NCBI GenBank assembly: GCA_965230995.1
Contig: OZ246398.1
Location: 400,213 to 464,212, forward strand
Reading direction: 5' to 3'
Length of the DNA stretch: 64,000 nucleotides
DNA from: an uncultured Candidatus Saccharibacteria bacterium
Lineage (GTDB): Bacteria > Patescibacteriota > Minisyncoccia > Phycocordibacterales > G965230995
Shown: one piece after another, positions 22,589-64,000 of the stretch
Numbering within the stretch: position 1 is the first letter of the stretch
How the letters are laid out: every line of letters starts with the position of its first letter
Made by a program: the position numbers and the translations under genes
Notes under the pieces: model-generated
Databases searched by the model: none
Seen by the model: only the letters and a program-made list of their open reading frames with translations
What the model was told of the DNA's origin: nothing

Positions 22589-23150
22589 AATTTTTTAATT
22601 CTCAAATCTCTGGCACGCCCACATCCCTTGTATATTTTTTATTACCCGAACCCTTGAGCTCGGGCAGTGTGAGGTCGATTAACAAGATTGGATGTCGACC
22701 GTTATTGGGCGTGGCAGAGAGCTGGCAACAATCAAACAAAAAAGAGCTCGCGATTGATTACCACAAAAAGTGATAATTAATCGCAAGCTCTTAAACTTGG
22801 AATTCCTTTCAGGATGCCTCGTGAGGCATAACTCTATTTGATTGTTAATTGCATTATACTACTTTTCAAAAAACAGCACAATAGTTTTTTCTGTGCATAA
22901 TTTATTTACTCTCGAACGGGGATCATTTTACATAAAGCCCGCCACCAAGAGTAGAAACCTTTCGGTCTCAACGCACGAGTTTCCCCATACGACCATCCAA
23001 GGATCCCTGATGACGGGTTCTATATCTTGGATGGATTTTTTGCCATGCCTACCGCAGTGCGATAAGTTTAGGCGATTAAATTGTCACTTATTATTTTAAT
23101 ATAAAATGGGTAAAAACACCAGACCGAATTTATTTCCAGAAATGAAGAAG

Positions 23151-29217: not shown

Positions 29218-29218
29218 T

Positions 29219-30828: not shown

Positions 30829-33804
30829 ATGAGTAATCTATACCAAAGAGGATCGGAGTGGCGAAAGTGGGATTTGCATGTTCACACCCCAAAATCAATA
30901 ATTCAAGAATATGGCGGAGATACAAAAGCAGTATGGGACGCATTTATTTTAAAAATAGCATCTTTACCACCCGAAATTAAAGTGATTGCAGTCACGGACT
31001 ATTTATTTTGTGACGGGTATGAATATTTACTTACAAGACGAGGTGAGTTTACAAATATTGAACTATTAATTCCAAATATAGAATTTAGACTTAATACTTT
31101 TAGTGGGACGGCCAACAACACTCGTAGACATAATTTTCATGTACTATTTGATCCAACCGTTAGTGTGCAAGATATTAGGGATCAGCTTTTAAATTGTCTA
31201 TCGAGTGGGTATAAAATAGAAGATAATACTAAATGGGAACAAACACCAACGAGACGATCGTTGGAAGATCTCGGCAAACAAATTAAGGCGGCGGCTCCGA
31301 CAGGAAACACTATACATAGCAAAACTGATCTTGAAGTAGGATTTGATAATATTACCTACGACAGAGATACAATTTATGAATTATTAAGCAAAAATTGTTT
31401 TACTGGAAAATTTGTAACTGCCATAGGTTATTCTGAATGGGATCATTCTCGATGGGATCAGTCAGCTGTTGAAAAGAGAGACTTGATAAATTCTGCGAAC
31501 TTTTGTCTTACATCTCTTGATGACCCATCTAAAATAAGTGAGAATCGCCAAGACCTCGAAACAAACAAATTAAACAGTATTGTTTTACATTCATCTGATG
31601 CACACAAACTTGATCGTGTCGGTCAGTCAATGCTCTGGGTTAAAGCTGATCCGACATTCGCTGGTCTCAAACAGGTACTAAATGAACCAGAAGCCCGTGT
31701 TTTTATTGGCGAGACACCTCCCAACCTTAAACCAGATCACAAAGTAATAAAAAAAATATCTATTCCACTATCTAATGGATGGTTTGCCAATGACTTTGAA
31801 TTAGAATTAAATCGGGACTTAATAACAGTTATTGGTGGCCGTGGTTCAGGTAAATCTGCCCTAGCGGAGGCGATTGCCTATGGCGCTGGAAGTAAAGATA
31901 ACAGTGATGATGCATTTTTAAAGAAAGCTTCGAAACATAAAAATTCTATAGCTGGAACTAAAATTAAAATTGACTGGGCAGATGGATCGTCTACAGAATT
32001 TGAAGTCGGGAAACTTACAGAGGATCAAGGGCTTGTTCAGTATTTACCGCAAGGAGCTGTGGAAGATCTATGCTCACACCGTAATAGTGAAAAGTTACAG
32101 AAACAAATCGAGAATGTTATTTTTCAAAAGCTTGATGACACCGAACGAATGGGTGCTTCAGATTTTGATGAACTCAGGACACGAATACTTAGTGGCTTTA
32201 AATATGAAAAAGAACAGGTTGTCGAAAAAATCCATGACATCAATCATAAGATAGGTGAGCTAGTTTCTGTACTCCGGAATCTACCGGAAAAGGAAAAACA
32301 GCTCGGCGAGAAAAAAGCCGAACTTGAAAGATTAAACAAAAGTTTGCCAGAATTGCCAGCTGAAGATAAAAAAGGACAAGAAGAACTTGCCAAACTCGCA
32401 GAAGTTAAGAAAAAGTATGAGGCCAAAATAGTTGAGCTTCAAGGTAAACTAAATAAAATTAGTGATGTTGAGACTAAAGTTAAAATTTTTAAATCTAAAA
32501 TTAAAGAATTTAAAGATGAAATTGATGTTTTGCTTACTGGGCTAGGTCTATCGGAGTCAGATGTATTTACCGTTACATTTAATGAAGACGCTATAAAAAA
32601 ATCTCTTGATTCAGAGAAGAATGAAATTGCCGAACATCTAAAAACTATTAAACAAGGAAAGAAACGGGAGGTCGCCCAGCTTCTTTCTATTGAAGAATCT
32701 GAATTACCTTTTGATAACTTGCAGGACTTGAACAAAGGTATAGAAGATAAACAGAAAGAGACGAGAGCTTTTGAAACTACAAAATTAAAATATCAGCAAC
32801 AAAAGAAAACTATTTTAACGGTTGAGAGTACAATTAAGGCAATTGATGGAGAAATTACTCGAATAAAGTCAGAATCAACCCCGGAAAAAGAACGACTGGA
32901 GAAAGAACGCTTTGGAGCTTATAGCAGTTATTTTGAGCTACTTAAAAGCGAAAAATCTAAAATGGAAGAGTTGTATAAACCACTACAAGATTCACTTTTA
33001 GCTGGAACAGATACTGATAAAAAATTGGTTTTTGAAGCACAAATTAATTATCGACTTGAACTTCATAATAAGGCAGGTCTCGATATTATTGACAGGTCAC
33101 GCAAAGGAAACTTCCGAGAAATTGATAGCTTAAAAAAGGTTCTCAGTGAGCACTCAGATGAATTTATAAGGCACGAGTTTGATCTGACTATTCTTGAAAC
33201 AAAATTAAAAGCGACTCTGGATAATTTTTTAACATTTGAGGAAAATGAAATTCTTATTGAAGATCAGCTAAGAGAAAATCACAATCTTGAAGACTTTTAT
33301 AATTGGTTATTTGATCCTACTTATTTTGAGATTATTTCATCGCTTAAGTTTGACGATACCGATCTTTATTTGCTCTCACCTGGACAGAAAGGAATTATCC
33401 TTCTGATTTTATATCTTAAGATTGATGAGGATGATTACAGGCCATTAATAATCGACCAGCCTGAGGAGAATCTTGATAATCTTTCCGTATATAGGGATTT
33501 AATTGAGTATTTCAGAGACAGAAAGCAGTTCAGGCAAATTATAATGGTTACGCATAATCCCAACCTTGTTGTAAATACTGATGCAGAACAAATTGTTGTC
33601 GCAAATTATAATGGCAAGCGAACGCCAAAACTCGAATATTGTTCGGGCTCTCTTGAGGATCAGGCAAGAAAAATACCCGATGTAGAAATTGAAAAATTCG
33701 AAGATGGGATAATTGAACAAGTTTGCAATATACTTGAGGGTGGTGAACCGGCATTTGCAAAGAGAAAAAAGAAATATCAAATTTCAATAAGAAGTAAAAT
33801 TTAA
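30829..33804 (+). CDS. PHP-domain fused to an ABC/SMC-like ATPase with a long coiled-coil insert ('Ppl'-like antiphage protein)
   Basis: N-terminal PHP motif WDLHVHTPKS, Walker A VIGGRGSGKSALAE, a coiled coil of roughly 250 aa, ABC signature LSPGQKGIILL, and Walker B/D-loop LIIDQPEENLD. Confidence 0.6.
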   Translation: MSNLYQRGSEWRKWDLHVHTPKSIIQEYGGDTKAVWDAFILKIASLPPEIKVIAVTDYLFCDGYEYLLTRRGEFTNIELLIPNIEFRLNTFSGTANNTRRHNFHVLFDPTVSVQDIRDQLLNCLSSGYKIEDNTKWEQTPTRRSLEDLGKQIKAAAPTGNTIHSKTDLEVGFDNITYDRDTIYELLSKNCFTGKFVTAIGYSEWDHSRWDQSAVEKRDLINSANFCLTSLDDPSKISENRQDLETNKLNSIVLHSSDAHKLDRVGQSMLWVKADPTFAGLKQVLNEPEARVFIGETPPNLKPDHKVIKKISIPLSNGWFANDFELELNRDLITVIGGRGSGKSALAEAIAYGAGSKDNSDDAFLKKASKHKNSIAGTKIKIDWADGSSTEFEVGKLTEDQGLVQYLPQGAVEDLCSHRNSEKLQKQIENVIFQKLDDTERMGASDFDELRTRILSGFKYEKEQVVEKIHDINHKIGELVSVLRNLPEKEKQLGEKKAELERLNKSLPELPAEDKKGQEELAKLAEVKKKYEAKIVELQGKLNKISDVETKVKIFKSKIKEFKDEIDVLLTGLGLSESDVFTVTFNEDAIKKSLDSEKNEIAEHLKTIKQGKKREVAQLLSIEESELPFDNLQDLNKGIEDKQKETRAFETTKLKYQQQKKTILTVESTIKAIDGEITRIKSESTPEKERLEKERFGAYSSYFELLKSEKSKMEELYKPLQDSLLAGTDTDKKLVFEAQINYRLELHNKAGLDIIDRSRKGNFREIDSLKKVLSEHSDEFIRHEFDLTILETKLKATLDNFLTFEENEILIEDQLRENHNLEDFYNWLFDPTYFEIISSLKFDDTDLYLLSPGQKGIILLILYLKIDEDDYRPLIIDQPEENLDNLSVYRDLIEYFRDRKQFRQIIMVTHNPNLVVNTDAEQIVVANYNGKRTPKLEYCSGSLEDQARKIPDVEIEKFEDGIIEQVCNILEGGEPAFAKRKKKYQISIRSKI

Positions 33805-36691: not shown

Positions 36692-37414
36692 ATGTCATTT
36701 GGCTCATATCTAAAAAAACAGAGAGAAACCAACAAATGGACGGCCAAGGATATCGCTGATCGCCTTGGTTTTTCGGCCAGTTATGTCAGTCAGTTGGAAA
36801 ACGATGCCAGACTCCCTTCTCAGAAGCAGTTGGGGCTTTTGGCTAAGGCTTACGAGGTCGACGAGGACGAATTAAAAAAACAGTGGACCGAATCAAAGAT
36901 CCATAAGGTCAGCATTTCTACAAACTATAAATTCAACATCAAAGACGCTGGCGAGAAGCGTGTTGAAGAAATGACTCACAAACTGGAAGCAGGTTTGGAG
37001 GAATTAAAAAAGACGATCACAGCCGATGAAGTGGCACATTACAAAATGCCACTGTTCAATACCATTCCAGTGGAAGATCTCGATCTGCATCTCAAACATG
37101 CGGAGGAATTTATTTTTATTCCTAAGAACGGGATTGTTCGTGATCACCGTATATTCGGCATTCGTGTTTCCGATGTTCAATTTCCGGAGGCAGGTATAAT
37201 CGAAGGCGACCTGATTATGCTTGATGCGGACATTGAGGCAAGTGACGGAGACATTGTAGTGTTGTCTACGCCAGACGGTCTGGTCATGACTTACTTCAAA
37301 AAGCGTGGTGACTTTTTGGAGATTGCGACCAGCAATAAAGGTTTTCAAAAAAGTTATCCGGACAAGAGTGTCCGATTAATAGGTCGGCTAATTTATCACA
37401 TAAAAAAATACTAA
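36692..37414 (+). CDS. cI: CI-like repressor: N-terminal XRE HTH plus a C-terminal S24 (LexA-like) peptidase domain
   Basis: HTH WTAKDIADRLGFSASYVSQLE, and a C-terminal ...GIRVSDVQF...GIIEGDLIMLD...DGDIVVL... beta-barrel region. Confidence 0.6.
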   Translation: MSFGSYLKKQRETNKWTAKDIADRLGFSASYVSQLENDARLPSQKQLGLLAKAYEVDEDELKKQWTESKIHKVSISTNYKFNIKDAGEKRVEEMTHKLEAGLEELKKTITADEVAHYKMPLFNTIPVEDLDLHLKHAEEFIFIPKNGIVRDHRIFGIRVSDVQFPEAGIIEGDLIMLDADIEASDGDIVVLSTPDGLVMTYFKKRGDFLEIATSNKGFQKSYPDKSVRLIGRLIYHIKKY

Positions 37415-37459: not shown

Positions 37460-39166
37460 ATGAGTACAAATTATTTAATTTACGGCCGTGTTTCTACCTC
37501 TCGTCAGGCCGAACGAGAATTAAGTATTCCGGCACAGGTCAAAGCGTGCCAAAAGTATGGAATGGATCATCATTGGAATTTACTTCCCGATGGCATCTAC
37601 GAGGAAAAAGGCGAATCCGCAAGAACGACTGATCGTCCACAGCTCCAGAAAATGCTTCATCGAGCAAAGACGGACAGCAAGGTTGATGTCATCTTAGTCC
37701 ACAAGCTTGATCGTATGTGTCGCAATGTGGCTGATTACGCCGCCATTAAGATGATGCTTAAAAAGCACGATGCCAAACTCGTTTCAGTGGTTGAACAATT
37801 CGATGAGTCCTTTTCCGGTGAGCTGGTTGAGAACATCATGGCATCGATTGCTCAATGGACTTCACAAAACATCAGCTGGGAGGTCAGGAAGGGTCTTAAA
37901 GAGGCCGTAGAGCGTGGCAGGTTCCCGGGGTATGCACCAATTGGGTATACGAACGATAAAAAGACCAAGTCTCTTATTATTGATAATATTCGAGCCCCTT
38001 ATATAAAACTGGCTTTTGAACTTTACGCCACCGGCAAGTATTCATACGATTCTTTGTCTGCCGAACTTAATAAGCGGGGTCTAAAAAGTAAATCCGGCAA
38101 ACATGTTAATCGCAAATCAATTGAGCATTTTCTTTGCAATCCAATTTACTATGGTTTGATAAAAACTCGATCAGCTACTTGTCAGGCAAACTTTCCGCCT
38201 CTAATTTCTAAAAAACTTTTTGATGATGTTCAGGAGGTAGTCCAACAGCACAATCATTATGCAGACCGTACTCGCAAGCACTCGTATCCTATGGCAGGGT
38301 TTATGAGATGTGCTGTGTGTGGGTCTACGCTCTGCGGACAGATGCAAAAGGGTCATCTTTATTATTCTTGTACTCACTGGCAGGACAAAAACTGTACTGA
38401 ACGCAAATACATGCGATGGGAGGTTGTTGAGGAACAGGTTGCAAACCATTTATCACGGGTTCATTTACCTGATAAGTTTAAGAAGGTACTCGATTCATAT
38501 TTCCAATATTTTGCAAAAGAACGACTCGAACAGGAGGATAAAGAACGCAAGAGTCTCAAGCGTGAGCTTATAAGAGTTCAACAGCAGATTCGCAATATCG
38601 TTGTGGATCGTTCTCAGCGTATCATTGACGCCGATGTCTTTATAAAGATTCAGGACGAGCTTCTTAAGGAGAAGGAAATGTATCAGGATCGCTTGGGTGT
38701 ACTTGAGGGCAAATCTGATAAATTCGTGCAGAAATTTAATGAGTTACTGGACTTCACGGATCATGCCGACAAGGTGTTTAACACCAGCTCAATGCATCAA
38801 AAACGCACTCTGATGAAGCTTTGTTTTGAGGGGTTCACTGTCAGTAATCAAAAACTGACGCCGATATGGACGCCAGTCTTTGATGTTCTTATGGATTTGC
38901 AAGTTTCCAAACTCGAACCACCGAAACCGTCAAAGGGCTTGAAAACCCTTGCAGTTTCTAAGGTTCAAAGTTGGAAATCTGGCGGAAGAGGAGGGATTCG
39001 AACCCTCGATGGGCTTTCGCCCATACCAGTTTTCGAAACTGGGACATTCAGCCTCTCTGCCACTCTTCCGTATGTAGATAGCCTATCACTTTTTGCATTT
39101 TTTACAAAAAATGTTATATTATTCCAGTCGGTTTGGTGTCTACCAAATCCACGGCCTTATCGTTAA
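37460..39166 (+). CDS. Large serine recombinase (phage integrase)
   Basis: Catalytic motif IYGRVSTSRQ, a recombinase domain, and the zinc ribbon CAVCGSTLCGQ...YYSCTHW...C. 568 aa. Confidence 0.85.
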   Translation: MSTNYLIYGRVSTSRQAERELSIPAQVKACQKYGMDHHWNLLPDGIYEEKGESARTTDRPQLQKMLHRAKTDSKVDVILVHKLDRMCRNVADYAAIKMMLKKHDAKLVSVVEQFDESFSGELVENIMASIAQWTSQNISWEVRKGLKEAVERGRFPGYAPIGYTNDKKTKSLIIDNIRAPYIKLAFELYATGKYSYDSLSAELNKRGLKSKSGKHVNRKSIEHFLCNPIYYGLIKTRSATCQANFPPLISKKLFDDVQEVVQQHNHYADRTRKHSYPMAGFMRCAVCGSTLCGQMQKGHLYYSCTHWQDKNCTERKYMRWEVVEEQVANHLSRVHLPDKFKKVLDSYFQYFAKERLEQEDKERKSLKRELIRVQQQIRNIVVDRSQRIIDADVFIKIQDELLKEKEMYQDRLGVLEGKSDKFVQKFNELLDFTDHADKVFNTSSMHQKRTLMKLCFEGFTVSNQKLTPIWTPVFDVLMDLQVSKLEPPKPSKGLKTLAVSKVQSWKSGGRGGIRTLDGLSPIPVFETGTFSLSATLPYVDSLSLFAFFTKNVILFQSVWCLPNPRPYR

Positions 39167-39233
39167 ATGAAACAAGAAGAGTTATCGACTATGTTGAATT
39201 TAAAAGGCGGGGTTTACAATTGAATATATAAAT

Positions 39234-39308
39234 GGCCTTATCGTCTAACGGTCAGGACACGGCCTTTTCAAGGCTGTAATCGGGGTTCGATTCCCCGTAA
39301 GGTCACCA
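39234..39308 (+). tRNA. tRNA-Glu (anticodon UUC), with CCA encoded
   Basis: Cloverleaf: acceptor ggcctta/taaggtc, anticodon stem cggcc/ggctg with loop uuUUCaa, and T-arm cggggTTCGAttccccg. Confidence 0.8.
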
Positions 39309-53109: not shown

Positions 53110-55587
53110 ATGGCTAAAAAAGAAGACAAAAAACCAGAAAATGACGGACTTCCAGCAGAGATAAACCCTCGTATTTCTGTGGTTTCTAGAAATGTTGTCG
53201 ATGAAATGAAAGAATCTTTCATTGACTATGCGATGTCTGTTATTACAGAAAGAGCCTTGCCAGACGTCAGGGACGGTCTCAAACCAGTACACCGAAGAAT
53301 ACTATATTCTATGTACGAAAATGGGCATACTTTTAATGCAAAATTTGTAAAAAGTGCGCGTATTGTTGGAGACGTGCTTGGAAAATATCACCCACACGGT
53401 GATGCGGCTGTTTACGAATCAATGGTTAAATTGGCACAAGATTTTGCTACCAGATATCCTTTGATACTTGGACAAGGAAACTTTGGTTCAATCGACGGCG
53501 ACAATGCCGCTGCTATGAGATACACCGAGGCAAAAATGTCTAAAATGGCAAATGAGCTTCTTCGTGATATCGACAAAGAAACAGTTCCTTTTCATCCAAA
53601 CTACGACGCCACAAGAAAAGAGCCGGGCGTTTTGCCTACTGCAGTTCCGAATTTGCTTCTCAATGGTACTTTGGGAATTGCTGTCGGTATGGCAACAAAC
53701 ATTCCTCCTCACAATTTGGGGGAATTATGCAATGCCATAATTCATATGATAGATAATCCGAATGCTACAGCCGAGGATTTGCTTTCTTTCGTAAAAGGTC
53801 CAGATTTTCCAACTGGATGTATTATATTCAACCAAAAAGACATACAGCACGCCTATGCAACAGGTAGGGGCGGAATAGTCACTCGTGGTGTTGCAGAAAT
53901 AGTTGAATCAAAAGCCGGAAGTTACCAAATCATCATTACATCAATACCATATAGAGTTAACAAAGCAGATTTGATTGTAAAAATTGCTGATTTGGTTAGA
54001 GAAAAGAAAATTGACGGTATAAAAGACGTCAGAGACGAATCAACAAAAGACATCAGAGTGGTGATTGAACTCAAGGGCAACAGCCATCCTCAAAAAGTCC
54101 TTAACTTTTTATACAAGCATACACAACTAGAAGAAACCTTCCACTTGAATATGGTGGCGCTTGTTGATGGTGTACCTCAGACTCTTTCACTGAAGGGAAT
54201 CCTTGAGCATTTTATTGATCACAGACTTGTTGTTATTAAAAAACGAACTGAATACGATCTCGCAAGGGCTCTCGAAAGAGAACATATTCTCCTCGGTTTG
54301 AAAAAAGCTCTCGATCATATTGATGAAATTATCAAAACCATCAAGGCCTCAAAAGACACACAATCTGCTCACGAGAACTTGATGAAAAAATTCAAATTCT
54401 CTGACAGGCAGGCAACTGCAATTTTGGAAATGAAACTCCAAAGATTGGCAGGTCTAGAAAGAAAGAAAATCGAAGACGAATTGCTTGCTGTACAGGAATT
54501 AATCGAAAAATTAAAGAAAATTCTTTCTTCAAAGAAAGAGATGACAAACATCATCAAAACAGAATCGACAGAAATCATCGAAAAATTTGCTGATGAAAGA
54601 AAAACAAGAATCATAAAACAAGGTGCAAAAGTCCTCTCAGTCGAAGACCTGGTTCCAGACGAAGAACAGACACTTGTGTTGACTTCTGGCGGGTATGTAA
54701 AAAGAACCAGCCCAGATGAATTCAAAAGACAAAAACGAGGCGGGGTAGGTGTCGTTGATTTGGATACCAAAGAGGAAGACTTTGTCACGACGTTCCTAAC
54801 TGCAAGCACTCACAGCGATGTCTTGTTCTTTACCGACAAAGGTAAAGCATACCAAGTAAAAATGTATGATTTGCCAGAAGGAAAAAGAGCCACAAAAGGA
54901 AAATCTATTATCAACTTTATCGGAATGGCAGAAGATGAAAAAGTCACTTCAGTTTTGGCGATGCCAAAGGAAATAAAAGAGATGGATTTTTCTGTTTTGA
55001 TGGTAACAAAACACGGGGTTACTAAAAAAGTCGATGCAAAGAGCTTCCATGATGTAAGACGAAACGGCATAATCTCAATTAAACTCGCAGATGGAGATGA
55101 ACTCATTTCTGTATCATTTGTGGGTGGAAAAGACACCATAGTGGTTGTAACCAAAAACGGTCAATCAATTAGGTTTTCATCTGATGATGTTAGAGAAATG
55201 GGTAGGGGTGCAGCAGGTGTAAGAGCAATTAAACTCGGCAAGGGTGACGAAGTAGTTGCTTCAGGTAGAATTCTTGAAAATGCAAAAGTCGACTTGCTCG
55301 TACTTATGGAAAACGGATACGGAAAAAAGACACCAATTGATGAATACAAAGTCCAGAATAGAGGTGGTTCAGGTATAAAGACAGCAAAGGTAACAACAAA
55401 AACAGGAAAATTGATATCCGCACACGTTGTAACTGCAGAAGAAGCCGAAATTGTCACAATTTCAAAGAAGAGCCAGGTGATTAGAACGGGAATAGACGAA
55501 ATACCCACTCTCGGTAGACAGACTCAAGGGGTTAGAATAATGAAACTCCGCGATGGTGATGGTATAGCTTCTCTCATTTGTTTGTAG
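53110..55587 (+). CDS. gyrA: DNA gyrase subunit A
   Basis: Active-site region [12 protein letters not shown], a QRDR-like HPHGD, and C-terminal beta-pinwheel repeats. Confidence 0.95.
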
Positions 55588-55592
55588 AAATA

Positions 55593-55623
55593 AAAAGCCC
55601 CGCGCTTCGCGCGGGGCTTTTTA
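55593..55623 (+). terminator. Rho-independent terminator after gyrA
   Basis: aaaaaGCCCCGCGCttcGCGCGGGGCttttt. Confidence 0.85.
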
Positions 55624-55674
55624 GATCTCCACAGTTATTTTTCTATTTTCTTTTGTAAGTGTTATAATTTAACA

Positions 55675-56202
55675 ATGTTTACAGATCCAGTATCTAATCT
55701 AGATTCTTTTGGTATTGAGCCGGGTATGAAGATTGCCGATATGGGAGCCGGCTCGGGTTTTTATTCAATAGAAGCAAGCAAACGTGTTGGTGATACGGGC
55801 AGGGTATATGCAATCGAAGTCCAAAAAGAAATTCTTGCAAAAATAAAAAATGATGCCGAGAAACTTGGGATTACAAATATAGAATATATCTGGGGAGATA
55901 TAGAAGCACCCAACGGAACAAAAATAGGAAACAATGTTGTCGACGCTATTTTTCTTTCAAATACTCTATTTCAGGTTGAAGACAAAAAAGGTGTTGTGCA
56001 TGAAGCACGTAGAATACTTAAACCTCGTGGTAAAATTTTGATCTTAGATTGGGCAGATTCTTTTGGTGGAATGGGACCATCTCAAAATATGCTCGTCCCC
56101 AAAGAAGATGTTCGCAAAATGTTCGAGGAATCCGGTTTTGTTTTTGTAAAAGAATTTGATCCAGGGGATCATCATTATGCATTAGTAATGAAAAAACAAT
56201 GA
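55675..56202 (+). CDS. Class I SAM-dependent methyltransferase
   Basis: Motif I IADMGAGSGFYS. Confidence 0.75.
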   Translation: MFTDPVSNLDSFGIEPGMKIADMGAGSGFYSIEASKRVGDTGRVYAIEVQKEILAKIKNDAEKLGITNIEYIWGDIEAPNGTKIGNNVVDAIFLSNTLFQVEDKKGVVHEARRILKPRGKILILDWADSFGGMGPSQNMLVPKEDVRKMFEESGFVFVKEFDPGDHHYALVMKKQ

Positions 56203-57488
56203 CAAAATTTCAACTTATTCTAACAATGGTTTTCGGTGCCTTTATTATTATTGGCGTCATCTTCTTTTCACTCGGAAGATCCGGATCAAACCAAGCTATA
56301 TCAAAAGTCTTGGTATGGGGCTACCTTCCAGAAAATCAATTTCAAGAAATTCTAAAACAGACGGGTGTAAGCGATGATAAAAACTTTTCTGTTACATACG
56401 AACAGATAGACAGAGATAATTTTGATGATAATTTTGTTAACGCCCTAGCCGATGGCTATGGTCCTGATGTTTTGTATATTGGTCAAGATCAAATATTAAA
56501 ACAAAAAAACAGGCTTGCGCTGATACCTTACGAATATTATCCGTTAAGAAACTTCCAGAATACTTTTACAGAGGGAACAGAAATTATGCTTGCTGATGGT
56601 GGAATCAGGGCGATACCTATCACAGTAGACCCCTTGGTTTTGTATTGGAATAGAGATACTTTTGCTGAAGCTGGTTTGGTTAACCCACCAAAAAATTGGC
56701 CAGAGTTAACATATGAAATGATTTTTCCGTTCACAAAAAAAGACGGTCCCGTGACATTGCTCCAAAGCGCTATTCCTTTGGGTACGTGGAGTAATCTAAA
56801 TCACGCAAAAGGAATTCTATCTGCTTTGATTATGCAATCCGGTGGCAATGTTACTTCTAAAATGGCATCGGGTGTTGTATCTGCTCTTGGAAATAGAATT
56901 GCAAATGGTGCTAGACCAGCTGAATCCGCCCTCAATTTCTTTGTTGATTTTTCAAATCCACAAACTAATTTCTATACTTGGAACGGGGCATTGTCTAATT
57001 CAATAGATTATTTTGCTTCTGGTAGATCAGCAATGTATATTGGGCTCGCTTCTGATCTTGAAAAAATTAAACAAAGAAATCCTAATCTTAATTTTGATGT
57101 GACCGAATTACCTCAGTCTCCAGAGAGAAAAAGAGCCGTGACCTATGGTGAGATTATGTCGCTTGCAATTCCATCAAGTACATCAAATTTTGCCAGCGCA
57201 CTTAATTTTATAAATGCTGTTTCGACAAAAGAAGGCACTTTAATTCATTCGAGAGTTCTCGGTTCTGCACCATCTAGAAAAGATGCGTTACTTGAACCAG
57301 ACCCAGCAAATGCTTTTGAATCAGTTTTCTTTAATTCTGCAAAATATGCTCTTTCCTGGCTTGACCCAGACAAAACAGAAACCGATAATATTTTTTCTGA
57401 TATGATAAAGAGCGTCACAAGCGGACAGAAAAGAATTAGCGACTCTGTATCGACCGCAAATCAAGAGCTTGTAAACATTCTCAAATAA
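56199..57488 (+). CDS. Membrane-anchored extracellular solute-binding-protein-like protein
   Basis: N-terminal TM segment followed by an SBP-like periplasmic domain. Operonic with the pilin-like genes. Confidence 0.5.
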   Translation: MTKFQLILTMVFGAFIIIGVIFFSLGRSGSNQAISKVLVWGYLPENQFQEILKQTGVSDDKNFSVTYEQIDRDNFDDNFVNALADGYGPDVLYIGQDQILKQKNRLALIPYEYYPLRNFQNTFTEGTEIMLADGGIRAIPITVDPLVLYWNRDTFAEAGLVNPPKNWPELTYEMIFPFTKKDGPVTLLQSAIPLGTWSNLNHAKGILSALIMQSGGNVTSKMASGVVSALGNRIANGARPAESALNFFVDFSNPQTNFYTWNGALSNSIDYFASGRSAMYIGLASDLEKIKQRNPNLNFDVTELPQSPERKRAVTYGEIMSLAIPSSTSNFASALNFINAVSTKEGTLIHSRVLGSAPSRKDALLEPDPANAFESVFFNSAKYALSWLDPDKTETDNIFSDMIKSVTSGQKRISDSVSTANQELVNILK

Positions 57489-57489
57489 A

Positions 57490-57882
57490 ATGAAAAAACT
57501 TTTTGCACATATAATAATCCTGTTTATAGTAATCATTCCAGTTGCTTTTCCAATATTTGCACTAGCACAGGGCAATGCACCAAGCCTAATAGTTTGTGAT
57601 GGTGTTACAGAACCCTGCACATTTAAACATGTCATAGAATTAGCGCAGGCGGTTATGAATTTTCTATTATATATTTCTACATTTATAGCTGCGGGAATGT
57701 TTATCTATTCAGGTTTTCTATATGTGACAGCAGGTGATGATTCTGGAAAAGTCACCACAGCAAAGGGAATCTTTAAAAGTGTTGCACTCGGTTATATCAT
57801 TATGTTATCTGCGTGGGTAATTGTTTATACGCTCGTAAATGCGCTATCAGAAAACCCAGAATACCTAAAATATTTTAAATAA
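57490..57882 (+). CDS. TrbC/VirB2-like pilin family paralog 1
   Basis: A signal peptide plus two hydrophobic helices flanking a charged loop. Confidence 0.5.
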   Translation: MKKLFAHIIILFIVIIPVAFPIFALAQGNAPSLIVCDGVTEPCTFKHVIELAQAVMNFLLYISTFIAAGMFIYSGFLYVTAGDDSGKVTTAKGIFKSVALGYIIMLSAWVIVYTLVNALSENPEYLKYFK

Positions 57883-57886
57883 TAAT

Positions 57887-58369
57887 ATGAAAAAAAATCT
57901 AAGATTTATTGCGATAGTCGGGTTAATGTCATTTCTATTTATATCAAATGTTATTACGATACCTGCTCTGGCACAGACTGAGCCTGCAAAGGGTTCAGTG
58001 ATGAATGATGGTACCGGTTCACCCGAAAAAGGATCTGTTATGAATTCTCCTTCTACAGGTCAAACAACGGGGGATACTTCTGGTGGATTAAAGATAAAAA
58101 ATCCGCTTGGTGACAAGGTAAATACTTTACCTGATCTTTTGATTTTGATTATAGACAAAATTGTTCTACCAATTGGCGGGATTATTGTTGCCTTTATGAT
58201 TATTTATACTGGCTTTAAATTCGTAATGGCACAGGGTGATCCTGGGGAACTGACTAAAGCAAAGCAAAGCCTTATGAATACATTAATTGGTGCCGCTATT
58301 ATATTGGGAGCATTGTCTATTTCAATAATAATAAAATCAATAGTAGATGATATAATCAAGGTTATATGA
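57887..58369 (+). CDS. TrbC/VirB2-like pilin family paralog 2
   Basis: Same architecture. Core reads ...IVAFMIIYTGFKFVMAQGDPGELTKAKQSLMNTLIGAAIILGA... Confidence 0.5.
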   Translation: MKKNLRFIAIVGLMSFLFISNVITIPALAQTEPAKGSVMNDGTGSPEKGSVMNSPSTGQTTGDTSGGLKIKNPLGDKVNTLPDLLILIIDKIVLPIGGIIVAFMIIYTGFKFVMAQGDPGELTKAKQSLMNTLIGAAIILGALSISIIIKSIVDDIIKVI

Positions 58370-58749
58370 AAAAGTATATTTTATCATTTTTACTCCTTGC
58401 ACCGTTCATTGCGAGTGCAAAAATATCAAATTTCAAAGAACTTCTCGATTTATTTTTTGAGTATGCAACCCAAATAGTTTTTCTAATATCAGTTTTGATA
58501 CTGCTTGCGTTTATGTGGGGTGTTGCCGATTTTATCAGAAAAACTGGTAGCGGTGATGACTTGGCAGAAGCAAAAAAAAGACTTTTGTGGGGTGTGATTG
58601 CAGTTTTTGTTGCGTTTTCTTTATGGGGAATATTATCATTTCTTTCAAATGATATATTTGGACCAACACAAGTCGATGTTGCTCCGCAAATATCAGAAGA
58701 TAAAATATTTCAATTTTTTCCTCGCAATAGCACACAAAATGGCCAATAA
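58366..58749 (+). CDS. TrbC/VirB2-like pilin family paralog 3
   Basis: Core reads ...LAFMWGVADFIRKTGSGDDLAEAKKRLLWGVIAVFVAFSLWGIL... Confidence 0.5.
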   Translation: MKKYILSFLLLAPFIASAKISNFKELLDLFFEYATQIVFLISVLILLAFMWGVADFIRKTGSGDDLAEAKKRLLWGVIAVFVAFSLWGILSFLSNDIFGPTQVDVAPQISEDKIFQFFPRNSTQNGQ

Positions 58750-58752
58750 TTT

Positions 58753-59577
58753 ATGAAAAAAATATTTCTCATACTTTCAATAATATTTGTTCCAATGCTA
58801 GCATCTGCCGATGGTGGTTTGGGTTCTCTGCTCAAAGCAATTACAGATATAGCAGAAATGCTCATTCCTATAGTCGCATCGCTTGCTCTACTATATTTTT
58901 TTTGGGGTGTTGCAGAATATGTTCGTGGTGTTGGCGCTTCGGGAAAAGAAGAGGGAAGATCAAAAATGTTTTGGGGCGCTATTGGATTGTTTGTAATGAT
59001 GTCTATTTGGGGACTTGTTAATTTCATAAGCTCAGATTTTTTGGGTATCAAACCAACTTCTTCGGGTGGTTCATATAGCAGTAGTTACAATAATCCAAGA
59101 TTAAATCAAAATACGCCAGTTCCTCCTTGTTATGACACAAGAACAGGAAAGACCGTTGTTAGAAACCCAAATGGTAGTGTGACATATACAATAGGGAACA
59201 AAGACCTTGATCCTTGCAAAACAGACGCAACCAATCAGATAATCAATCTAACAGCCTTTACAATAAATAAGACATGGAGTGCTACAAAATGGACGGCTTC
59301 TAAAATAAAAAATGGCGCAGTCGGTACATTCGAATGGGTTTTTGGTAGCAATAATAAAACTCAAGATACACAAACACAAAACCCTCCAGCAGAAAACACG
59401 AATCCAGCGGATGACGGTACAGATAACGGTATGCTAGAAAGTTACAGAATCGACGGTACAGATGATGTGGATGATTCAAATGTTGATGTTGCCACTGATG
59501 AACCACTAGAAGACGAAGGGGATACAACATATCCAACAGATGGACCAGACGAGAATTGGATGGGCCCCAACGATTAA
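58753..59577 (+). CDS. TrbC/VirB2-like pilin paralog 4 with an extended, acidic C-terminal tail
   Basis: Core ...LALLYFFWGVAEYVRGVGASGKEEGRSKMFWGAIGLFVMMSIWGLVNFI... plus a 170-aa Asn/Thr/Asp-rich tail. Confidence 0.5.
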   Translation: MKKIFLILSIIFVPMLASADGGLGSLLKAITDIAEMLIPIVASLALLYFFWGVAEYVRGVGASGKEEGRSKMFWGAIGLFVMMSIWGLVNFISSDFLGIKPTSSGGSYSSSYNNPRLNQNTPVPPCYDTRTGKTVVRNPNGSVTYTIGNKDLDPCKTDATNQIINLTAFTINKTWSATKWTASKIKNGAVGTFEWVFGSNNKTQDTQTQNPPAENTNPADDGTDNGMLESYRIDGTDDVDDSNVDVATDEPLEDEGDTTYPTDGPDENWMGPND

Positions 59578-59663
59578 TCCACATTGTATCGTTGCTTGCT
59601 TGTTTAAATCGTATTATTATTAGCTAAAGCGTTATATTCGCTAATTTATTAATAAAAGTTTAT

Positions 59664-60023
59664 ATGAAAAAATATTTTCTTGCAGTCTCACTAATTGTTC
59701 TTCCTGTAATCGTATTGGCGGCTGATTCTAATGGTTATTTATCAGATTTGAAATCAATTGTAAGTTCTATTGGAAGGATTATTGGACTTCTCATCCCAAT
59801 CGTATTTGCTCTTGCTCTCCTATATTTCTTCTGGGGATTGGCAAAATACATCCTTGCTTCAGGTGAAGGAAAAGAAGAAGGAAGAAATACTATGATTTGG
59901 GGTGTTGTTGCATTGTTCGTAATGGCATCAATTTGGGGGATAGTTAGTTTTATACAAAAGGCTTTTGGTGTTACCAATAATGCGGATGCTACTGTTCCTA
60001 CTGTAGTTATACCAAAAAAATAA
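59664..60023 (+). CDS. TrbC/VirB2-like pilin paralog 5
   Basis: Core LIPIVFALALLYFFWGLAKYILASGEGKEEGRNTMIWGVVALFVMASIWGIV is identical to paralog 6. Confidence 0.55.
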   Translation: MKKYFLAVSLIVLPVIVLAADSNGYLSDLKSIVSSIGRIIGLLIPIVFALALLYFFWGLAKYILASGEGKEEGRNTMIWGVVALFVMASIWGIVSFIQKAFGVTNNADATVPTVVIPKK

Positions 60024-60079
60024 CAATAAAATTAATTATTTAATTACAAATTATTCGCAAATTTATTAATAAAATTTAT

Positions 60080-60430
60080 ATGAAAAAAAATATTTTTTTA
60101 GCATTGCTAATGGTTCTGCCGTACTTTGTTTCAGCACAGGAACAACTGAAAAATGTAGAGGGGATAGTAGGATCAATAGGAGATATTGTTAATTTACTCA
60201 TCCCAATAGTGTTTGCCCTAGCTCTCCTATATTTCTTCTGGGGATTGGCAAAATACATCCTTGCTTCAGGTGAAGGAAAAGAAGAAGGAAGAAATACTAT
60301 GATTTGGGGTGTTGTTGCATTGTTCGTAATGGCATCAATTTGGGGGATAGTTAGATTTATTCAAAGCGCTTTCAATATTGATAATGAAAATCCAGCAACT
60401 CAAAATGCGCCGGGAATAAAAAAACAATAG
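60080..60430 (+). CDS. TrbC/VirB2-like pilin paralog 6
   Basis: Shares about 160 bp of near-identical DNA with paralog 5, including the upstream promoter/RBS. Confidence 0.55.
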   Translation: MKKNIFLALLMVLPYFVSAQEQLKNVEGIVGSIGDIVNLLIPIVFALALLYFFWGLAKYILASGEGKEEGRNTMIWGVVALFVMASIWGIVRFIQSAFNIDNENPATQNAPGIKKQ

Positions 60431-60473
60431 TGTTACGATATTGTTGTGGTTAATTATTTTCCTTTAAACAAAA

Positions 60474-60710
60474 ATGTTACCCGTAATTAATGTAATTCTA
60501 GACAAGATAGTCAATCCGATAATTTGGGTAATGTTTACGGTAGCTTTGATTGTCTTTCTGTGGGGTATATTCAAATTCCTCTCGAGCGACGAAGGTGGGG
60601 AAGGACGAACAAAAGGAAAAGATTCAATGGTTTGGGGAATTGTAGGGTTTCTAATTATGGTTGGAGTCTGGGGAATAATCGCATTCGTAAAAGAAACACT
60701 AAAGCTTTAA
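60474..60710 (+). CDS. TrbC/VirB2-like pilin paralog 7 (lacks a signal peptide)
   Basis: Core ...ALIVFLWGIFKFLSSDEGGEGRTKGKDSMVWGIVGFLIMVGVWGII... Confidence 0.45.
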   Translation: MLPVINVILDKIVNPIIWVMFTVALIVFLWGIFKFLSSDEGGEGRTKGKDSMVWGIVGFLIMVGVWGIIAFVKETLKL

Positions 60711-60773
60711 AATAAAAAAAAGACAGGGGCGGTCCGCGCGTTGCGGTCCGCCCCTTCGTCGTACCAGCCTTCC

Positions 60774-61388
60774 TTATTGGCTGTTGTTTATAGGTTCAAC
60801 GATTTCGATCTTGATCTCTGCCCCGCTGGGCGAGAGACCCTTCACCCAGAGTAGCGTGAAGGTGCCTTTCGGTTTGTGTTTACCTTCCGTCTTTTCCTCG
60901 TCAACACCGAAGTTCTCGTACCATACGACTTCCTCGGAGACATGCTCCGAGATGAAATCGTTGACACGAATCAGGGCCCTACCCTTGTTAGAGTAAACCT
61001 TGAAGGGGCGTCCGTCGATGTCGAACGGCTCAGAGATCTCTCCTTGGGCTACCGTGACAGTTCTCGATGCGATAACTCTCACGTTCTCGGTGTCAACCTT
61101 ATTGGCAACCTTCGCCTGTACAGCGGTGTTGGTGGTACGAGGGCGCATGTCGTTCATCGCGCCGTTCGTGAACACTCCACTGCATGTTGAGATAAGGCAG
61201 ACGAGCGACAGCAACGCCAGGTACCACAGAATGCTGTGCGATGCCTTCGTGGTCCCCTTCGCAGAGGTAGCCGTTCCCGGAGTGGCTGATCCGCCAGTAC
61301 CCGAGCCCTTTTTCTTCTTGAAGAAGATCACAATCGCCGCTACCACAAACACTGCCAGAACCCCGATCATAACCTGTCTGACTTCCAT
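60774..61388 (-). CDS. GC-rich membrane protein. One TM helix, a Gly/Thr-rich linker, then a second TM helix.
   Basis: ORF with biased codon usage. Sits upstream of the SPFH gene on the same strand. Confidence 0.45.
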   Translation of the reverse strand: MEVRQVMIGVLAVFVVAAIVIFFKKKKGSGTGGSATPGTATSAKGTTKASHSILWYLALLSLVCLISTCSGVFTNGAMNDMRPRTTNTAVQAKVANKVDTENVRVIASRTVTVAQGEISEPFDIDGRPFKVYSNKGRALIRVNDFISEHVSEEVVWYENFGVDEEKTEGKHKPKGTFTLLWVKGLSPSGAEIKIEIVEPINNSQ

Positions 61389-61500
61389 AGAACTCCTCCT
61401 GTTTCCATATTATTATATCATACATACAGTTTATATGTCAAGTACGAAAAAGCGCCGGGGTTTAGCCGGCGCCGTGAATGGCAAGTGTCTGTCGGGGGTC

Positions 61501-62496
61501 CTAATCCCCGTCAGGAACTATCTTTCCACCCGGTGCGTACGTAATGTGAGTCGCATCGGAGAGCCCGATCATCGCTGCTGCAACGGTCTCCGGGTTCTTG
61601 AGCACTGCGTGGATGCGCTCCACCTGGCTCGCCTCAGCCTGTGCGATGCCTTGTGTCTCCTCAACCTTGGCCTCAGCCAAACCCTTGGCCTCCTTGACCC
61701 TGATCGCAGCAAGCTTATCCTCCTTTTCGATCTCTGGTCCTTGACGAACTCTCGCTGCATCTGCTTGTTGATGTGAAGCAGCAAGGTCGGTGAAGCTCTG
61801 ACGCAGAGCCTTCTCTGATGCCGAGTCGTCCCTCTTGGTAATTGTGGCATCAGTTACCTTTAGGGCGAAGCTAGAGTTGTTGAGAGACTGTTGAAGGCCA
61901 ACCTTTCCAGCTTCACTTACTGTTTCGACCTGGGCATCAGTCATTGACTTGACCAATATTTCCAGGTGGCTGGTAACACTTTCCTTCACCAAGAAGATGA
62001 TCTTTGCTTCAGCTTCAGGTTGGGGAAGAATATTGCCATCTGTTGTGAGCAAGTGCTGTTGGATGAAATCAATACAGGTTGGGTTTTCTGTATCGATTGA
62101 CACCATGACACGAAAGTCCAGGTCCTTCTGTCTGCGTGTATGGCTAGCTGTCAAACTGCCATCAGGGTTTAGGATGTTTATTTCAACATCCTTCTTCTGA
62201 CCCACTAAGGTGAAGACCAGTGGCAATGTTCCCTTGACCTTGAAACAAGGATTCAACCCGTACATGATACGAATTGGATTTGCCCAGTGCATCTTCGCCA
62301 CGTGACGGTGGTACATTCCCGGTAACACTATGCCCATAAAGGCTGTGTTTACGAGGGGGTTGTATACACCACGAGGTACATTGTTTACGAAGACAACACT
62401 GAGTGTCCCGCCGTTTACTTCATGATACGACGAGACAATCAGAAGGACGACAAACGCGATGGCAATGAGGATTCCGAGCGTGGTAGTGGTGAACAT
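61501..62496 (-). CDS. SPFH/band-7 (stomatin/flotillin-like) domain protein with a C-terminal Ala/Glu-rich coiled coil
   Basis: N-terminal TM helix, an SPFH-like core, and an AEAKVEETQGIAQAEASQVE helical tail. Confidence 0.65.
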   Translation of the reverse strand: MFTTTTLGILIAIAFVVLLIVSSYHEVNGGTLSVVFVNNVPRGVYNPLVNTAFMGIVLPGMYHRHVAKMHWANPIRIMYGLNPCFKVKGTLPLVFTLVGQKKDVEINILNPDGSLTASHTRRQKDLDFRVMVSIDTENPTCIDFIQQHLLTTDGNILPQPEAEAKIIFLVKESVTSHLEILVKSMTDAQVETVSEAGKVGLQQSLNNSSFALKVTDATITKRDDSASEKALRQSFTDLAASHQQADAARVRQGPEIEKEDKLAAIRVKEAKGLAEAKVEETQGIAQAEASQVERIHAVLKNPETVAAAMIGLSDATHITYAPGGKIVPDGD

Positions 62497-62712
62497 GGTA
62501 GCTCTCCTTGCGTTACGGTTGGCTTGTGTGTAGAACAGTTCAGGCTATATTATATTACATAATTGTGTAAAAGTCAAGCAAAAAGAGAGCTATAAATAAC
62601 GATATTTTTGCCATATTTATTTCCATTGTTTTTGTCGATTATTAATATTCCTCTTAAATTCTTTGTTTTTTTGCGTAAATATGATAAAGTTTTCTTTGTT
62701 GATTTTAAAAAT

Positions 62713-62785
62713 GCGCTCATAGCTCAGCTGGTAGAGCAGTCGCCTCTTAAGCGAACGGTCGTAGGTTCGATTCCTACTGGGCGCA
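62713..62785 (+). tRNA. tRNA-Lys (anticodon CUU)
   Basis: D-arm UAGCUCAGCUGGUAGAGCA, anticodon loop cuCUUaa, T-arm guaggTTCGAUUccuac, acceptor gcgctca/tgggcgc. Confidence 0.8.
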
Positions 62786-62799
62786 CATCGCAATAATAG

Positions 62800-62834
62800 A
62801 AAAACACCTCTGATTTTAAAGGTGTTTTTCTTTT
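62800..62834 (+). terminator. Rho-independent terminator after tRNA-Lys
   Basis: aaaaaCACCtctgattttaaaGGTGtttttctttt. Confidence 0.75.
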
Positions 62835-62928
62835 GCGATGTGCGAGCCGGACCGTAGCGGAGCGGAGGGAGGCGGGGTCGCGACTTTCTGCCGAGAACAC
62901 GAGGCAGAAAAGTAGTGACCACAATGTT

Positions 62929-63062
62929 TGTGCGCCCAAGCAAGTCCGGGGGACTTGCGTGTAGGAATCGAAAGGCTTTTGAGCTGATTTTAGAGTTCGA
63001 GGAACGAGAACGAATAAAATCACCAAAAGGCATACTGTCCATGTAATGGAAGATTCCTACTG
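62929..63062. repeat. tRNA-Lys-associated composite. It comprises an inverted copy of the tRNA 3' half with a 21-nt hairpin insertion (62929-62972), the shared 20-mer atactgtccatgtaatggaa (63032-63051), and an 11-bp direct copy of the tRNA 3' end (63052-63062).
   Basis: Direct comparison with tRNA-Lys 62766-62787. Parallels the tRNA-Glu locus. Confidence 0.75.
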
Positions 63063-63127
63063 AATGAAAGTGACTTGTCCTTCGTTCACAAAAGACGAAA
63101 GTTGTGACCACAAGCAAAAAATAAATT

Positions 63128-63547
63128 TTGTATTTGCATTTTGATATTATTGGGAATAGAATTAATATGTATCGAGACAAACCGACTCGACAGTTTGTAC
63201 ACCTAGAAGTGGAGGAGGTCATGACTACTAGTGCTAGGGTTGACATGAGTAGGTTTGAGAGTGTACTCAAGCCACAATTGGGCCCGCTGTGGGGCAGGGC
63301 CTTGACTATCTTCGAAGGTTACGGTCCGGCCCTGAGTTGGTGTGTGACCAAGTCTCTTGATCTTGCCGTTGATCGGGGAAAAGTGGAGGAGGTGCTAGGT
63401 ATTCTGGAAAGACACTACCGGGACCATCTCTCGTTTCAACACCCTGACATTCGTGGCGCGATCGAAGGGGCCTCTGGTGACCTCACCAACACTATGTTCA
63501 GGCAGATCTTTGAGGTGGTGCTTAAGAAGGCACCTTGTGCGGGGTGA
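63128..63547 (+). CDS. Hypothetical protein in a moderately GC-rich region
   Basis: ORF of 139 aa. No motif recognised. Confidence 0.3.
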   Translation: MYLHFDIIGNRINMYRDKPTRQFVHLEVEEVMTTSARVDMSRFESVLKPQLGPLWGRALTIFEGYGPALSWCVTKSLDLAVDRGKVEEVLGILERHYRDHLSFQHPDIRGAIEGASGDLTNTMFRQIFEVVLKKAPCAG

Positions 63548-63757
63548 GGCATCGCCTCGCCTCGCTATGTTGACCAGTCTTCGGTGACTTCACCATCGGC
63601 TGGTCTTCTTTTTTTGCTAGGGTAAATCCTATGCAACGAAGGTCGCGACCTCGCCTCGGTCTGTTGCAAAATTAAAATAAACAATATAACTGGACAAAAT
63701 TAAGAAAATGTTATAGTGTAATTTGCGAACAGTTCTCAAAATAGAAGGGAGAACGCC

Positions 63758-64000
63758 ATGGCTGGCCATAAACTGGTAGAACATCTGACAACCATCGAGG
63801 ACGGACTGAGGAATGAACACGGTGCAACAATTATCGGTATGCCGATAACCGTCATCATCGAAAACGGCAATGTCGAGCCCGACGACGAATGGGCCTTGTT
63901 CCGTCTGACGGACGCCGGTATGTGGGCTTACTTCGTAGTTGGGTGTGAGATGGCAGAAGCTATCCTGTCGATTTTAATCGACGACAAGCCTGCAGTCGAA
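63758..64000 (+). CDS. Hypothetical protein. Partial, runs off the window end.
   Basis: ATG at 63758 preceded by gaagggagaacgcc (RBS). The ORF is still open at 64000. Confidence 0.3.
   Translation, partial: MAGHKLVEHLTTIEDGLRNEHGATIIGMPITVIIENGNVEPDDEWALFRLTDAGMWAYFVVGCEMAEAILSILIDDKPAVE

Follow-up and report, generated by a model that had tools for sequence, protein, structure and literature searches.

Seven tandem PF18895 pilin-like genes in a probable Paceibacteria operon, with recent gene conversion between paralogs 5 and 6

In the 64,000-nt stretch of contig OZ246398.1 analysed here (the window; 64 kb in all), seven small open reading frames (ORFs) follow one another in tandem on the + strand and fill positions 57490-60710. 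An earlier reading of this DNA, made from the sequence alone (the original prediction), had described seven consecutive small + strand genes at this position as pilin paralogs, and ORF calling placed the genes exactly there. Along the array the ORFs encode 130, 160, 127, 274, 119, 116 and 78 aa (paralogs 1-7), and the gaps between them measure 4, -4, 3, 86, 56 and 43 nt, with paralogs 1-4 tightly packed. Directly upstream on the same strand (56199-57488) is a gene for a membrane-anchored extracellular protein of the solute-binding protein type (SBP-like; SBP_bac_8/SBP_bac_1), which matches Pfam SBP_bac_8 at E=2.4e-21, has an N-terminal membrane anchor and ends with a stop codon 1 nt before the start of paralog 1. 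It belongs to a run of core genes at 39.9-57.5 kb (ftsZ, ftsA, lepB, pth, gyrA, a methyltransferase and the SBP_bac_8 gene). On the other side of the array, a GC-rich hairpin (60726-60754; GGGGCGGTCCGC-GCGTT-GCGGTCCGCCCC, with an A-run before it) separates paralog 7 from a convergent - strand gene. The RNA fold of this hairpin has an energy of -29.3 kcal/mol (z = -5.45; 0 of 200 shuffles equally stable), and it is likely a bidirectional terminator at the 3' end of the operon. Scanning 55400-61000 for promoter and terminator consensus sequences gave nothing above shuffled expectation, and no promoter was assigned before paralogs 5, 6 or 7.

All seven products have two long hydrophobic segments around a short charged loop rich in Gly, Asp, Glu and Lys, as judged by hydropathy. 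In paralogs 1-6 these are preceded by a Sec-type signal peptide (MKK, a hydrophobic stretch and an AxA-like site), and in paralog 7, which lacks one, the N-terminus is the first core helix. The shared architecture proposed originally, a signal peptide, a helix, a charged loop and a second helix, is present in full in six of the seven genes, and its two hydrophobic segments in all seven. The paralogs are otherwise divergent, with a mean column identity of 26% across the seven, and fall into two sequence classes, A (paralogs 1-2) and B (paralogs 3-7). An AlphaFold2 (AF2) model of paralog 6, built on a 123-sequence alignment, consists of a signal helix followed by a helical hairpin (helices 23-61 and 66-97), with a mean predicted local distance difference test score (pLDDT) of 83 and values of 86-94 in the core. 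Paralog 4 is likewise modelled as a confident helical hairpin (helices 23-58 and 62-95). Together with the hydropathy profiles, these two models give the small two-helix hydrophobic hairpin with a short polar loop that characterises the Pfam family PF18895 ("T4SS_pilin", for type IV secretion system, T4SS).

That family is matched by all seven paralogs, with E values from 1.5e-10 to 7.2e-6. In class A, paralog 1 (57490-57882; E=3.1e-10, 40.4 bits) carries a Cys pair in its mature N-terminus, and paralog 2 (57887-58369; E=2.5e-7, 31.1 bits) has a mature N-terminal extension of ~55 aa rich in Gly, Ser and Thr. Class B begins with paralog 3 (58366-58749; E=1.1e-7, 32.2 bits), whose start overlaps the stop of paralog 2 by 4 nt, and continues with paralog 4 (58753-59577; E=7.2e-6, 26.4 bits), in which the signal peptide and hairpin core (aa 1-95) are followed by a long tail (aa 96-274; nt 59038-59574). 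The last three genes are paralog 5 (59664-60023; E=4.5e-9, 36.7 bits), paralog 6 (60080-60430; E=1.5e-10, 41.5 bits) and paralog 7 (60474-60710; E=5.6e-9, 36.4 bits), which is a hairpin core only. Six of the seven pass the curated PF18895 gathering cutoff of 26.6 bits; paralog 4 misses it by 0.2 bit and aligns over 64 of the 71 profile positions. The seven genes belong to the PF18895 family.

The original prediction had named TrbC/VirB2 (PF04956) as the pilin family to look for, and here the Pfam search returned a pilin family, PF18895, with PF04956 remaining below threshold. The best PF04956 match of the array, that of paralog 2, scores 17.9 bits (E=0.0037) against a cutoff of 27.9, and no paralog reaches this cutoff. 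Among NCBIfam models, the pilin-like protein of a Mycoplasma integrative and conjugative element (ICE; NF045849) is the best match for paralogs 2, 3, 6 and 7, at 13-29 bits and below its 40-bit cutoff; for paralog 7 it is the sole NCBIfam match listed (E=5.9e-7, also sub-cutoff). When the family profile was compared with PDB sequences, the best match was TraM of pKM101 (8cw4; E=0.037), which we take to be the VirB2 homologue of that plasmid. PF18895 proteins are regarded as VirB2-like pilins of Patescibacteria T4SSs (PMC12102498, PMC10633639), and their presumed kinship with classical VirB2 derives from the name given by Pfam and from published structure-based annotation (PMC10633639).

We then compared the window with related loci, comprising a metagenomic relative (L001-L004) and 80 species-level loci from a one-genome-per-species scan. 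Homologues of paralogs 5 and 6 come from metagenome-assembled genomes (MAGs) of Paceibacteria/Parcubacteria. The metagenomic relative has the same order as the window, gyrA, methyltransferase and SBP followed by seven PF18895 genes, and nearly all of the 80 loci carry 4-9 tandem homologues on one strand. Among loci complete on both sides, arrays of seven genes are the most frequent (n=27), followed by six (n=18), five (n=10), four (n=7) and eight (n=2), with one array each of nine and three genes. In 75 loci the SBP-like gene immediately precedes the array, and 68 loci have gyrA. Within the arrays, the paralogs find their best matches at corresponding positions: paralog 1 at the first gene of the array in 70 of 79 loci, paralog 2 at the second in 56 of 80, paralogs 5 and 6 at the penultimate gene in 62 and 64 of 81, respectively, and paralog 7 at the last gene in 46 of 81. 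Gene properties follow the same order. The last array gene in the relatives has a median length of 89 aa and looks signal-peptide-bearing in 11% of loci, and the penultimate gene is ~115 aa long with a signal peptide in 85%; the window agrees on both counts. Because orthologues keep their array position, we regard the array as an ancient, ordered operon and not as a pool of silent or interchangeable copies. On this evidence, the operon spans the whole class Paceibacteria and is not a recent amplification.

Many of the syntenic loci bear the title 'uncultured Candidatus Saccharibacteria bacterium' (MAG TPA_asm; for example L006 and L009-L012). These loci share 64-72% GyrA identity and the same gyrA-SBP-array synteny with records titled Paceibacteria or Zambryskibacteria, and the Saccharibacteria titles look generic or mislabelled.

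The partnership of the SBP-like gene with the array is conserved. In the 73 loci where the distance was measured, the first pilin gene mostly starts between -4 and +10 nt from the SBP stop, a spacing that implies translational coupling of the two genes, and in the window the SBP-like gene is apparently coupled to paralog 1 in this way. The window ORFs that were scanned yielded no ATP-binding cassette (ABC) permease or ATPase.

The original prediction reported about 160 bp of near-identical DNA over the core of paralogs 5 and 6, flanked by differing termini, and read it as recent gene conversion, and both the observation and its reading are borne out. Over a core of 53 codons (59787-59945 in paralog 5 and 60194-60352 in paralog 6, both + strand), 53 of 53 aa and 153 of 159 nt are identical. 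The tracts as a whole extend over 59787-59947 and 60194-60354 and contain a perfect run of 134 nt (59814-59947 = 60221-60354). Outside the core, nt identity is 54% in the N-terminal coding part and 53% in the C-terminal part, and the overall identity of the two paralogs is 66-70%. When the differences between the two genes were permuted in 100,000 trials, no run exceeded 47 nt, compared with the 134 nt observed (p<1e-5), and 44 consecutive third-codon positions are identical where the permutation maximum is 29 (p<1e-5). Where the two proteins have the same residue, the genes also share the codon in 48 of 53 cases in the core versus 15 of 26 in the flanks (Fisher p=0.0019).

Constraint on the protein does not explain this nucleotide identity, because the corresponding pair in the relative L003 keeps its core protein (50 of 55 aa identical) and yet is only 73% identical in nt. 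Shared codons in the core amount to 48 of 53 in the window versus 21 of 50 in the L003 pair (p=1.8e-7). Since a near-identical core, synonymous sites included, lies amid diverged flanks, the tract represents a recent non-reciprocal transfer between old paralogs, and recent gene conversion accounts best for the mosaic. In another scenario, the two genes would stem from a very recent tandem duplication, with fast divergence of their ends; in its favour, they neighbour each other, have similar lengths and both look like the single penultimate gene of most relatives. The flanks, however, show the degree of divergence seen in comparisons with a species at 70% GyrA identity, whereas the core is 96% identical, and in L003 the same two-copy arrangement exists with the diverged core DNA described above. 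We exclude a uniform recent duplication as the source because the mosaic is too sharp, and consider the duplication scenario as a whole very improbable.

The likeness of paralogs 5 and 6 extends to the DNA before them. The ~30 nt 5' of their starts (59634-59663 and 60051-60079, both + strand) differ by one substitution and one single-base indel, and a 24-nt motif within them, TTATTCGCWAATTTATTAATAAAA, occurs in the window only at 59634-59657 and 60051-60074, with 0 occurrences expected by chance. The original prediction took these segments for near-identical promoter and ribosome-binding-site regions; their near-identity stands, but no promoter rises above shuffled expectation there. As a family-wide regulatory element the motif was rejected, as it is present in 0 of 93 fetched loci, and we count it with the DNA that was duplicated or converted.

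Similar tracts are found elsewhere in the family. Across 1,237 within-locus pairs the longest shared run measures 9 nt in the median and 20 nt at the 95th percentile, and identical runs of 73-276 nt occur within the arrays of seven other species (L045, L023, L053, L005, L033, L012 and L069). In seven of the nine pairs with tracts of at least 73 nt, the converted segment is the conserved hairpin core only and both variable termini are left alone. The reverse mosaic is seen in L069 (8266-9118), where array genes 1 and 2 have an identical signal peptide and first ~45 residues and differ in their cores; the perfect run of 73 nt in this pair lies within a longer stretch of near-identity. Core-only conversion tracts arose independently in at least seven other species.

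The original prediction had seen in this pattern a cassette-style array, possibly for antigenic or phage-receptor variation. In a system of this kind, expression would be limited to one or a few copies, the rest would be donors, and conversion would reshuffle exposed epitopes, against phages or for host range. The frequency of identical tracts speaks for such a system, as do the exchange of an N-terminal exposed part in L069 and the lineage-specific exposed tails described below, and host-range versatility has been raised as a possibility for Patescibacteria arrays (PMC12102498). The structure of the array speaks against it. All seven ORFs are full length, have start codons and lie in one tightly packed same-strand operon; positional orthologues recur in order across ~80 species; and conversion mostly affects the core rather than the variable termini. 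At the array locus we found no invertible promoter and no recombinase, and the inverted repeats found there are short and AT-rich. We consider variation of this kind quite unlikely at this locus.

The pilE/pilS system of Neisseria provides a useful reference. There, silent, promoterless and 5'-truncated pilS donors transfer the variable exposed region of the pilin, which belongs to another pilin superfamily. The short non-reciprocal tracts between pilin paralogs are a point of likeness. In contrast, the copies in the window are all complete and it is the conserved packing core that is homogenised, the opposite of variation of the pilE/pilS type; a single expression locus with truncated, promoterless donors and movement of variable segments is not what the array contains.

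As originally described, paralog 4 carries an acidic tail rich in Asn and Thr, which we find to be 179 aa long (residues 96-274; T 14%, N 11%, D 11%), slightly longer than the 170 aa first given; its last 75 residues, with 16 Asp and 6 Glu, are strongly acidic. None of the 80 related loci holds a homologue of the tail, and since its AF2 pLDDT is <50, no fold can be assigned to it. Other species have unrelated extensions of low complexity, at the N- or the C-terminal end and on different paralogs. The tails are lineage-specific. If the topology of VirB2 holds for these proteins, the variable ends would be those expected outside the membrane or filament.

[quoted passage not shown] By analogy with VirB2/TraA and with the Saccharibacteria literature, the preproteins would go into the cytoplasmic membrane and be cleaved by signal peptidase I, whose gene, lepB, is present in the window. 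A VirB4-type T4SS with its genes elsewhere in the genome may then extract the hairpins and polymerise them into a heteropolymeric surface filament or conduit, in which the hairpin core would supply the subunit contacts, lattice and lumen and the N- and C-terminal segments and tails would face outward. The seven subunits could act as non-redundant components (major, minor or initiating). Given that orthologues keep their array position, this is most likely, rather than that they are alternative antigenic versions of one subunit.

Conversion would have a place in such an assembly. Copying of the ~160-nt core and the ~30 nt upstream between paralogs 5 and 6, non-reciprocally, may keep the lattice-forming parts of neighbouring paralogs compatible, and selection or the short length of the tracts may preserve the differing exposed ends. 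Core-only conversion fits two subunits that pack identically and display different surfaces.

Several results weigh against assembly by a T4SS. The VirB4, VirD4, VirB6, VirB3 and VirB11 families are all missing among ~43 scanned window ORFs of >=139 aa, the window reaching 57 kb upstream of the array and 3 kb downstream. In the 80 relatives, no T4SS ATPase was found within ±10 kb of the array among representatives of conserved families or other large ORFs; the conserved neighbours in these species include a lysozyme-like protein, an SPFH protein, IF-2, DUF4446 and others. Proteins with a Walker-A motif among ORFs of >=420 aa in the 80 loci were considered as VirB4-like candidates and rejected, since they are ClpB, UvrA and PrkA (the other large ORFs are unknown). 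Tight coupling to an SBP-like gene is not known from any described T4SS. At the level of the family, profile-profile alignment (hhalign) with nine annotated plasmid VirB2/TrbC proteins is not significant (probability 0.6% and 20.6%), and for this reason we do not claim homology to classical VirB2. The conjugative pilin architecture of the original prediction is in this respect upheld by the PF18895 matches and not by direct similarity to VirB2. A Foldseek search of the PDB with the paralog 6 model gave no match at E<0.001, returning generic helical matches, the two-helix hairpin being too simple to discriminate. The pilin role of PF18895 is itself putative, and no filament has been reported for this lineage in the literature searched.

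These observations would suit membrane-resident hairpins that act with the SBP-like protein, independently of any T4SS, in uptake, adhesion or an envelope complex, with the Pfam name being misleading. The absence of a T4SS ATPase next to the array in all 80 species, the constancy of the coupling to the SBP-like gene and the lack of a significant profile-profile link to VirB2 all favour such a role. The published array counts, going by the legend of Fig. S9, concern a 'VirB2 array near virB4' (PMC12102498). On the other hand, PF18895 arrays adjoin virB4/trsD, and sit inside virB4/trsD clusters, in other Patescibacteria listed in Table S3 of the same study, where the rows used give PF18895 only for genes near virB4. 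In Southlakia epibionticum ML1, the T4SS cluster SEML1_0006-0019 encodes a pilin series that is essential along with the T4SS (PMC10633639). Separation of pilins from the ATPase is also common, as pilins occur in 1,948 Patescibacteria assemblies and near virB4 in only 1,135 of them (PMC12102498), and VirB4 is present in 2,417 of 3,035 assemblies (literature). The products have the layout of VirB2, a signal peptide, a hairpin and exposed tails, and a specialised lysozyme-like gene stands right after the array in about half of the relatives, as in envelope-spanning machines. We regard a T4SS-independent role as unlikely, and retain VirB4-dependent assembly as the probable one.

The lysozyme-like gene encodes a membrane protein on the - strand, convergent with the array and ~58 nt past its end (for example L049:6278-7924 and L018:3309-4772). 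It was found in 42 related loci at E<1e-3, and 29 aligned members share the motif IAxCES...A.G..QI. The best PDB match of their profile is the lytic transglycosylase EtgA of a type III secretion system (E=8e-4), and PF18896 (SLT_3) is matched individually by only 2 of the 29. On modest evidence, it is a plausible VirB1-type accessory of the pilin operon. We did not find it in the window.

A more specific proposal is that the gyrA-linked operon, with its SBP-like gene, 4-9 position-specific PF18895 genes and often a convergent lysozyme-like gene, constitutes a distinct, virB4-unlinked module of Paceibacteria that the published surveys, centred on virB4, would have missed. Its products would form a heteropolymeric surface filament or conduit with a core kept uniform by recurrent conversion, diversifying ends and tails, and the SBP-like protein as a ligand- or host-recognition element, for instance in the uptake of host-derived molecules. 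This is speculative, and we give it a low probability in its full form.

Pilin arrays as such are established in this phylum, and the array in the window is another example of the VirB2-like arrays already published for Patescibacteria. It resembles those described (Wang 2023; Quiñonero-Coronel 2025) in its PF18895 family, its phylum and its tandem, same-strand, divergent genes with a signal peptide and a hairpin. An array in the published sense consists of at least two PF18895/VirB2-like genes in tandem or one gene apart, and seven lie in tandem here. The survey counted 441 arrays of 2-11 genes in 383 Patescibacteria assemblies, with a mean within-array identity of 25% and a maximum of 54% (PMC12102498). 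The 66-70% identity of paralogs 5 and 6 exceeds this maximum because of gene conversion. The published arrays, which the figure legend places near virB4, are most abundant in Microgenomatia and Saccharimonadia, whereas the array in the window belongs to Paceibacteria and sits in a housekeeping context of gyrA, methyltransferase and SBP. It further differs from them in its coupling to the SBP-like gene and in the lack of T4SS genes, both in the window and, in relatives, over ±10 kb around the array.

Other pilin systems resemble the array in part. The classical VirB2/TrbC/TraA proteins (T-pilus, pKM101 TraM, F-pilin) are likewise small, with a signal peptide, two hydrophobic helices around a short polar loop and termini predicted to face outward, but the window has seven paralogs instead of one, no adjacent virB1-virB3-virB4 and a monoderm host. 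Mbov_0395 of a Mycoplasma ICE (NF045849), from the conjugation system of a monoderm, is likewise a small membrane protein with two helices, but its gene stands alone in the ICE and not in an array. Divergent tandem pilins, with surface variation proposed as their role, are known from the virB2/trwL arrays of Bartonella and Rickettsiales, which arose in host-associated Proteobacteria by recent, lineage-specific amplification within a T4SS locus. Unlike these, the paralogs in the window are ancient, with orthologues that keep their position class-wide. The tandem virB2/trwL paralogs of Bartonella (Trw) and of the T4SS of Anaplasma/Rickettsiales are cited in the survey of Patescibacteria (PMC12102498).

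The value of the present locus is incremental, since features of this kind have been published before. Patescibacteria (CPR) account for a large part of bacterial diversity and apparently live attached to other microorganisms. In the sole genetically tractable CPR member, the T4SS and the pilin-like series are essential for growth on the host. We found no description of the gyrA/SBP-linked pilin arrangement in the searchable literature, and the positional orthology throughout Paceibacteria, the SBP-coupled, virB4-unlinked context and the recurrent core-only conversion appear undescribed. In Paceibacteria, the largest CPR class, an ordered pilin operon argues for a multi-component structure over interchangeable antigenic variants, and core-only conversion offers targets for structure prediction, proteomics and cryo-electron tomography, namely the residues that need to be identical for co-assembly and the exposed ends.

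Downstream of the array, the GC content rises from 0.353 in the array to 0.487 directly after it (60711-64000). This segment holds a tRNA-Lys(CTT) at 62713-62786 and two - strand genes (60774-61388 and 61501-62496), for which neither Pfam nor PHROG gives a match and the 80 syntenic loci contain no homologue. Comparison of the two genes with the lysozyme-like and SPFH proteins found at these positions in the relatives showed no relationship (E 0.5-1.7). The product of 61501-62496 has an SPFH-like layout, with an N-terminal transmembrane segment and an Ala/Glu/Lys-rich helix, yet reaches only E=1.7 against the SPFH profile of the relatives. The segment 60711-64000 may be a replacement or insertion where relatives carry the lysozyme-like and SPFH genes.

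At the other end of the window, positions 1-39200 are occupied by an integrated phage-like element with a GC content of 0.42, compared with 0.38 in the flanking core genes. To our knowledge, prophages of CPR bacteria have rarely been described. On the - strand the element encodes a large terminase (18744-20390), a portal (16867-18816), an SU10-like major capsid protein (14281-15504), a beta-helix protein (11438-12991) and a LysM protein (5578-6906). It also has genes for a reverse transcriptase (25172-26221), an SMC-like ATPase (30829-33804), a repressor of the S24/helix-turn-helix type (36692-37414) and a large serine recombinase (37460-39166), and further carries a D12 methylase, ParB-like, Fic and RadC proteins and a PD-(D/E)XK nuclease. 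A complete type II restriction-modification pair at 28231-29986 consists of a C5 cytosine methylase (E=2.8e-98) and, after it, an endonuclease of the R.HinP1I family (E=3.4e-81). A full-length LOOT RNA motif (Rfam RF03000; 76.5 bits, gathering score 46.4) lies within the element at 22954-23074 on the - strand. The serine recombinase ORF is overlapped at its 3' end by a tRNA-Ser(CGA) on the opposite strand (38980-39069) and a tRNA-Glu(TTC) follows at 39234-39308, and the region 37460-39308 is likely the attachment site or boundary of the element.

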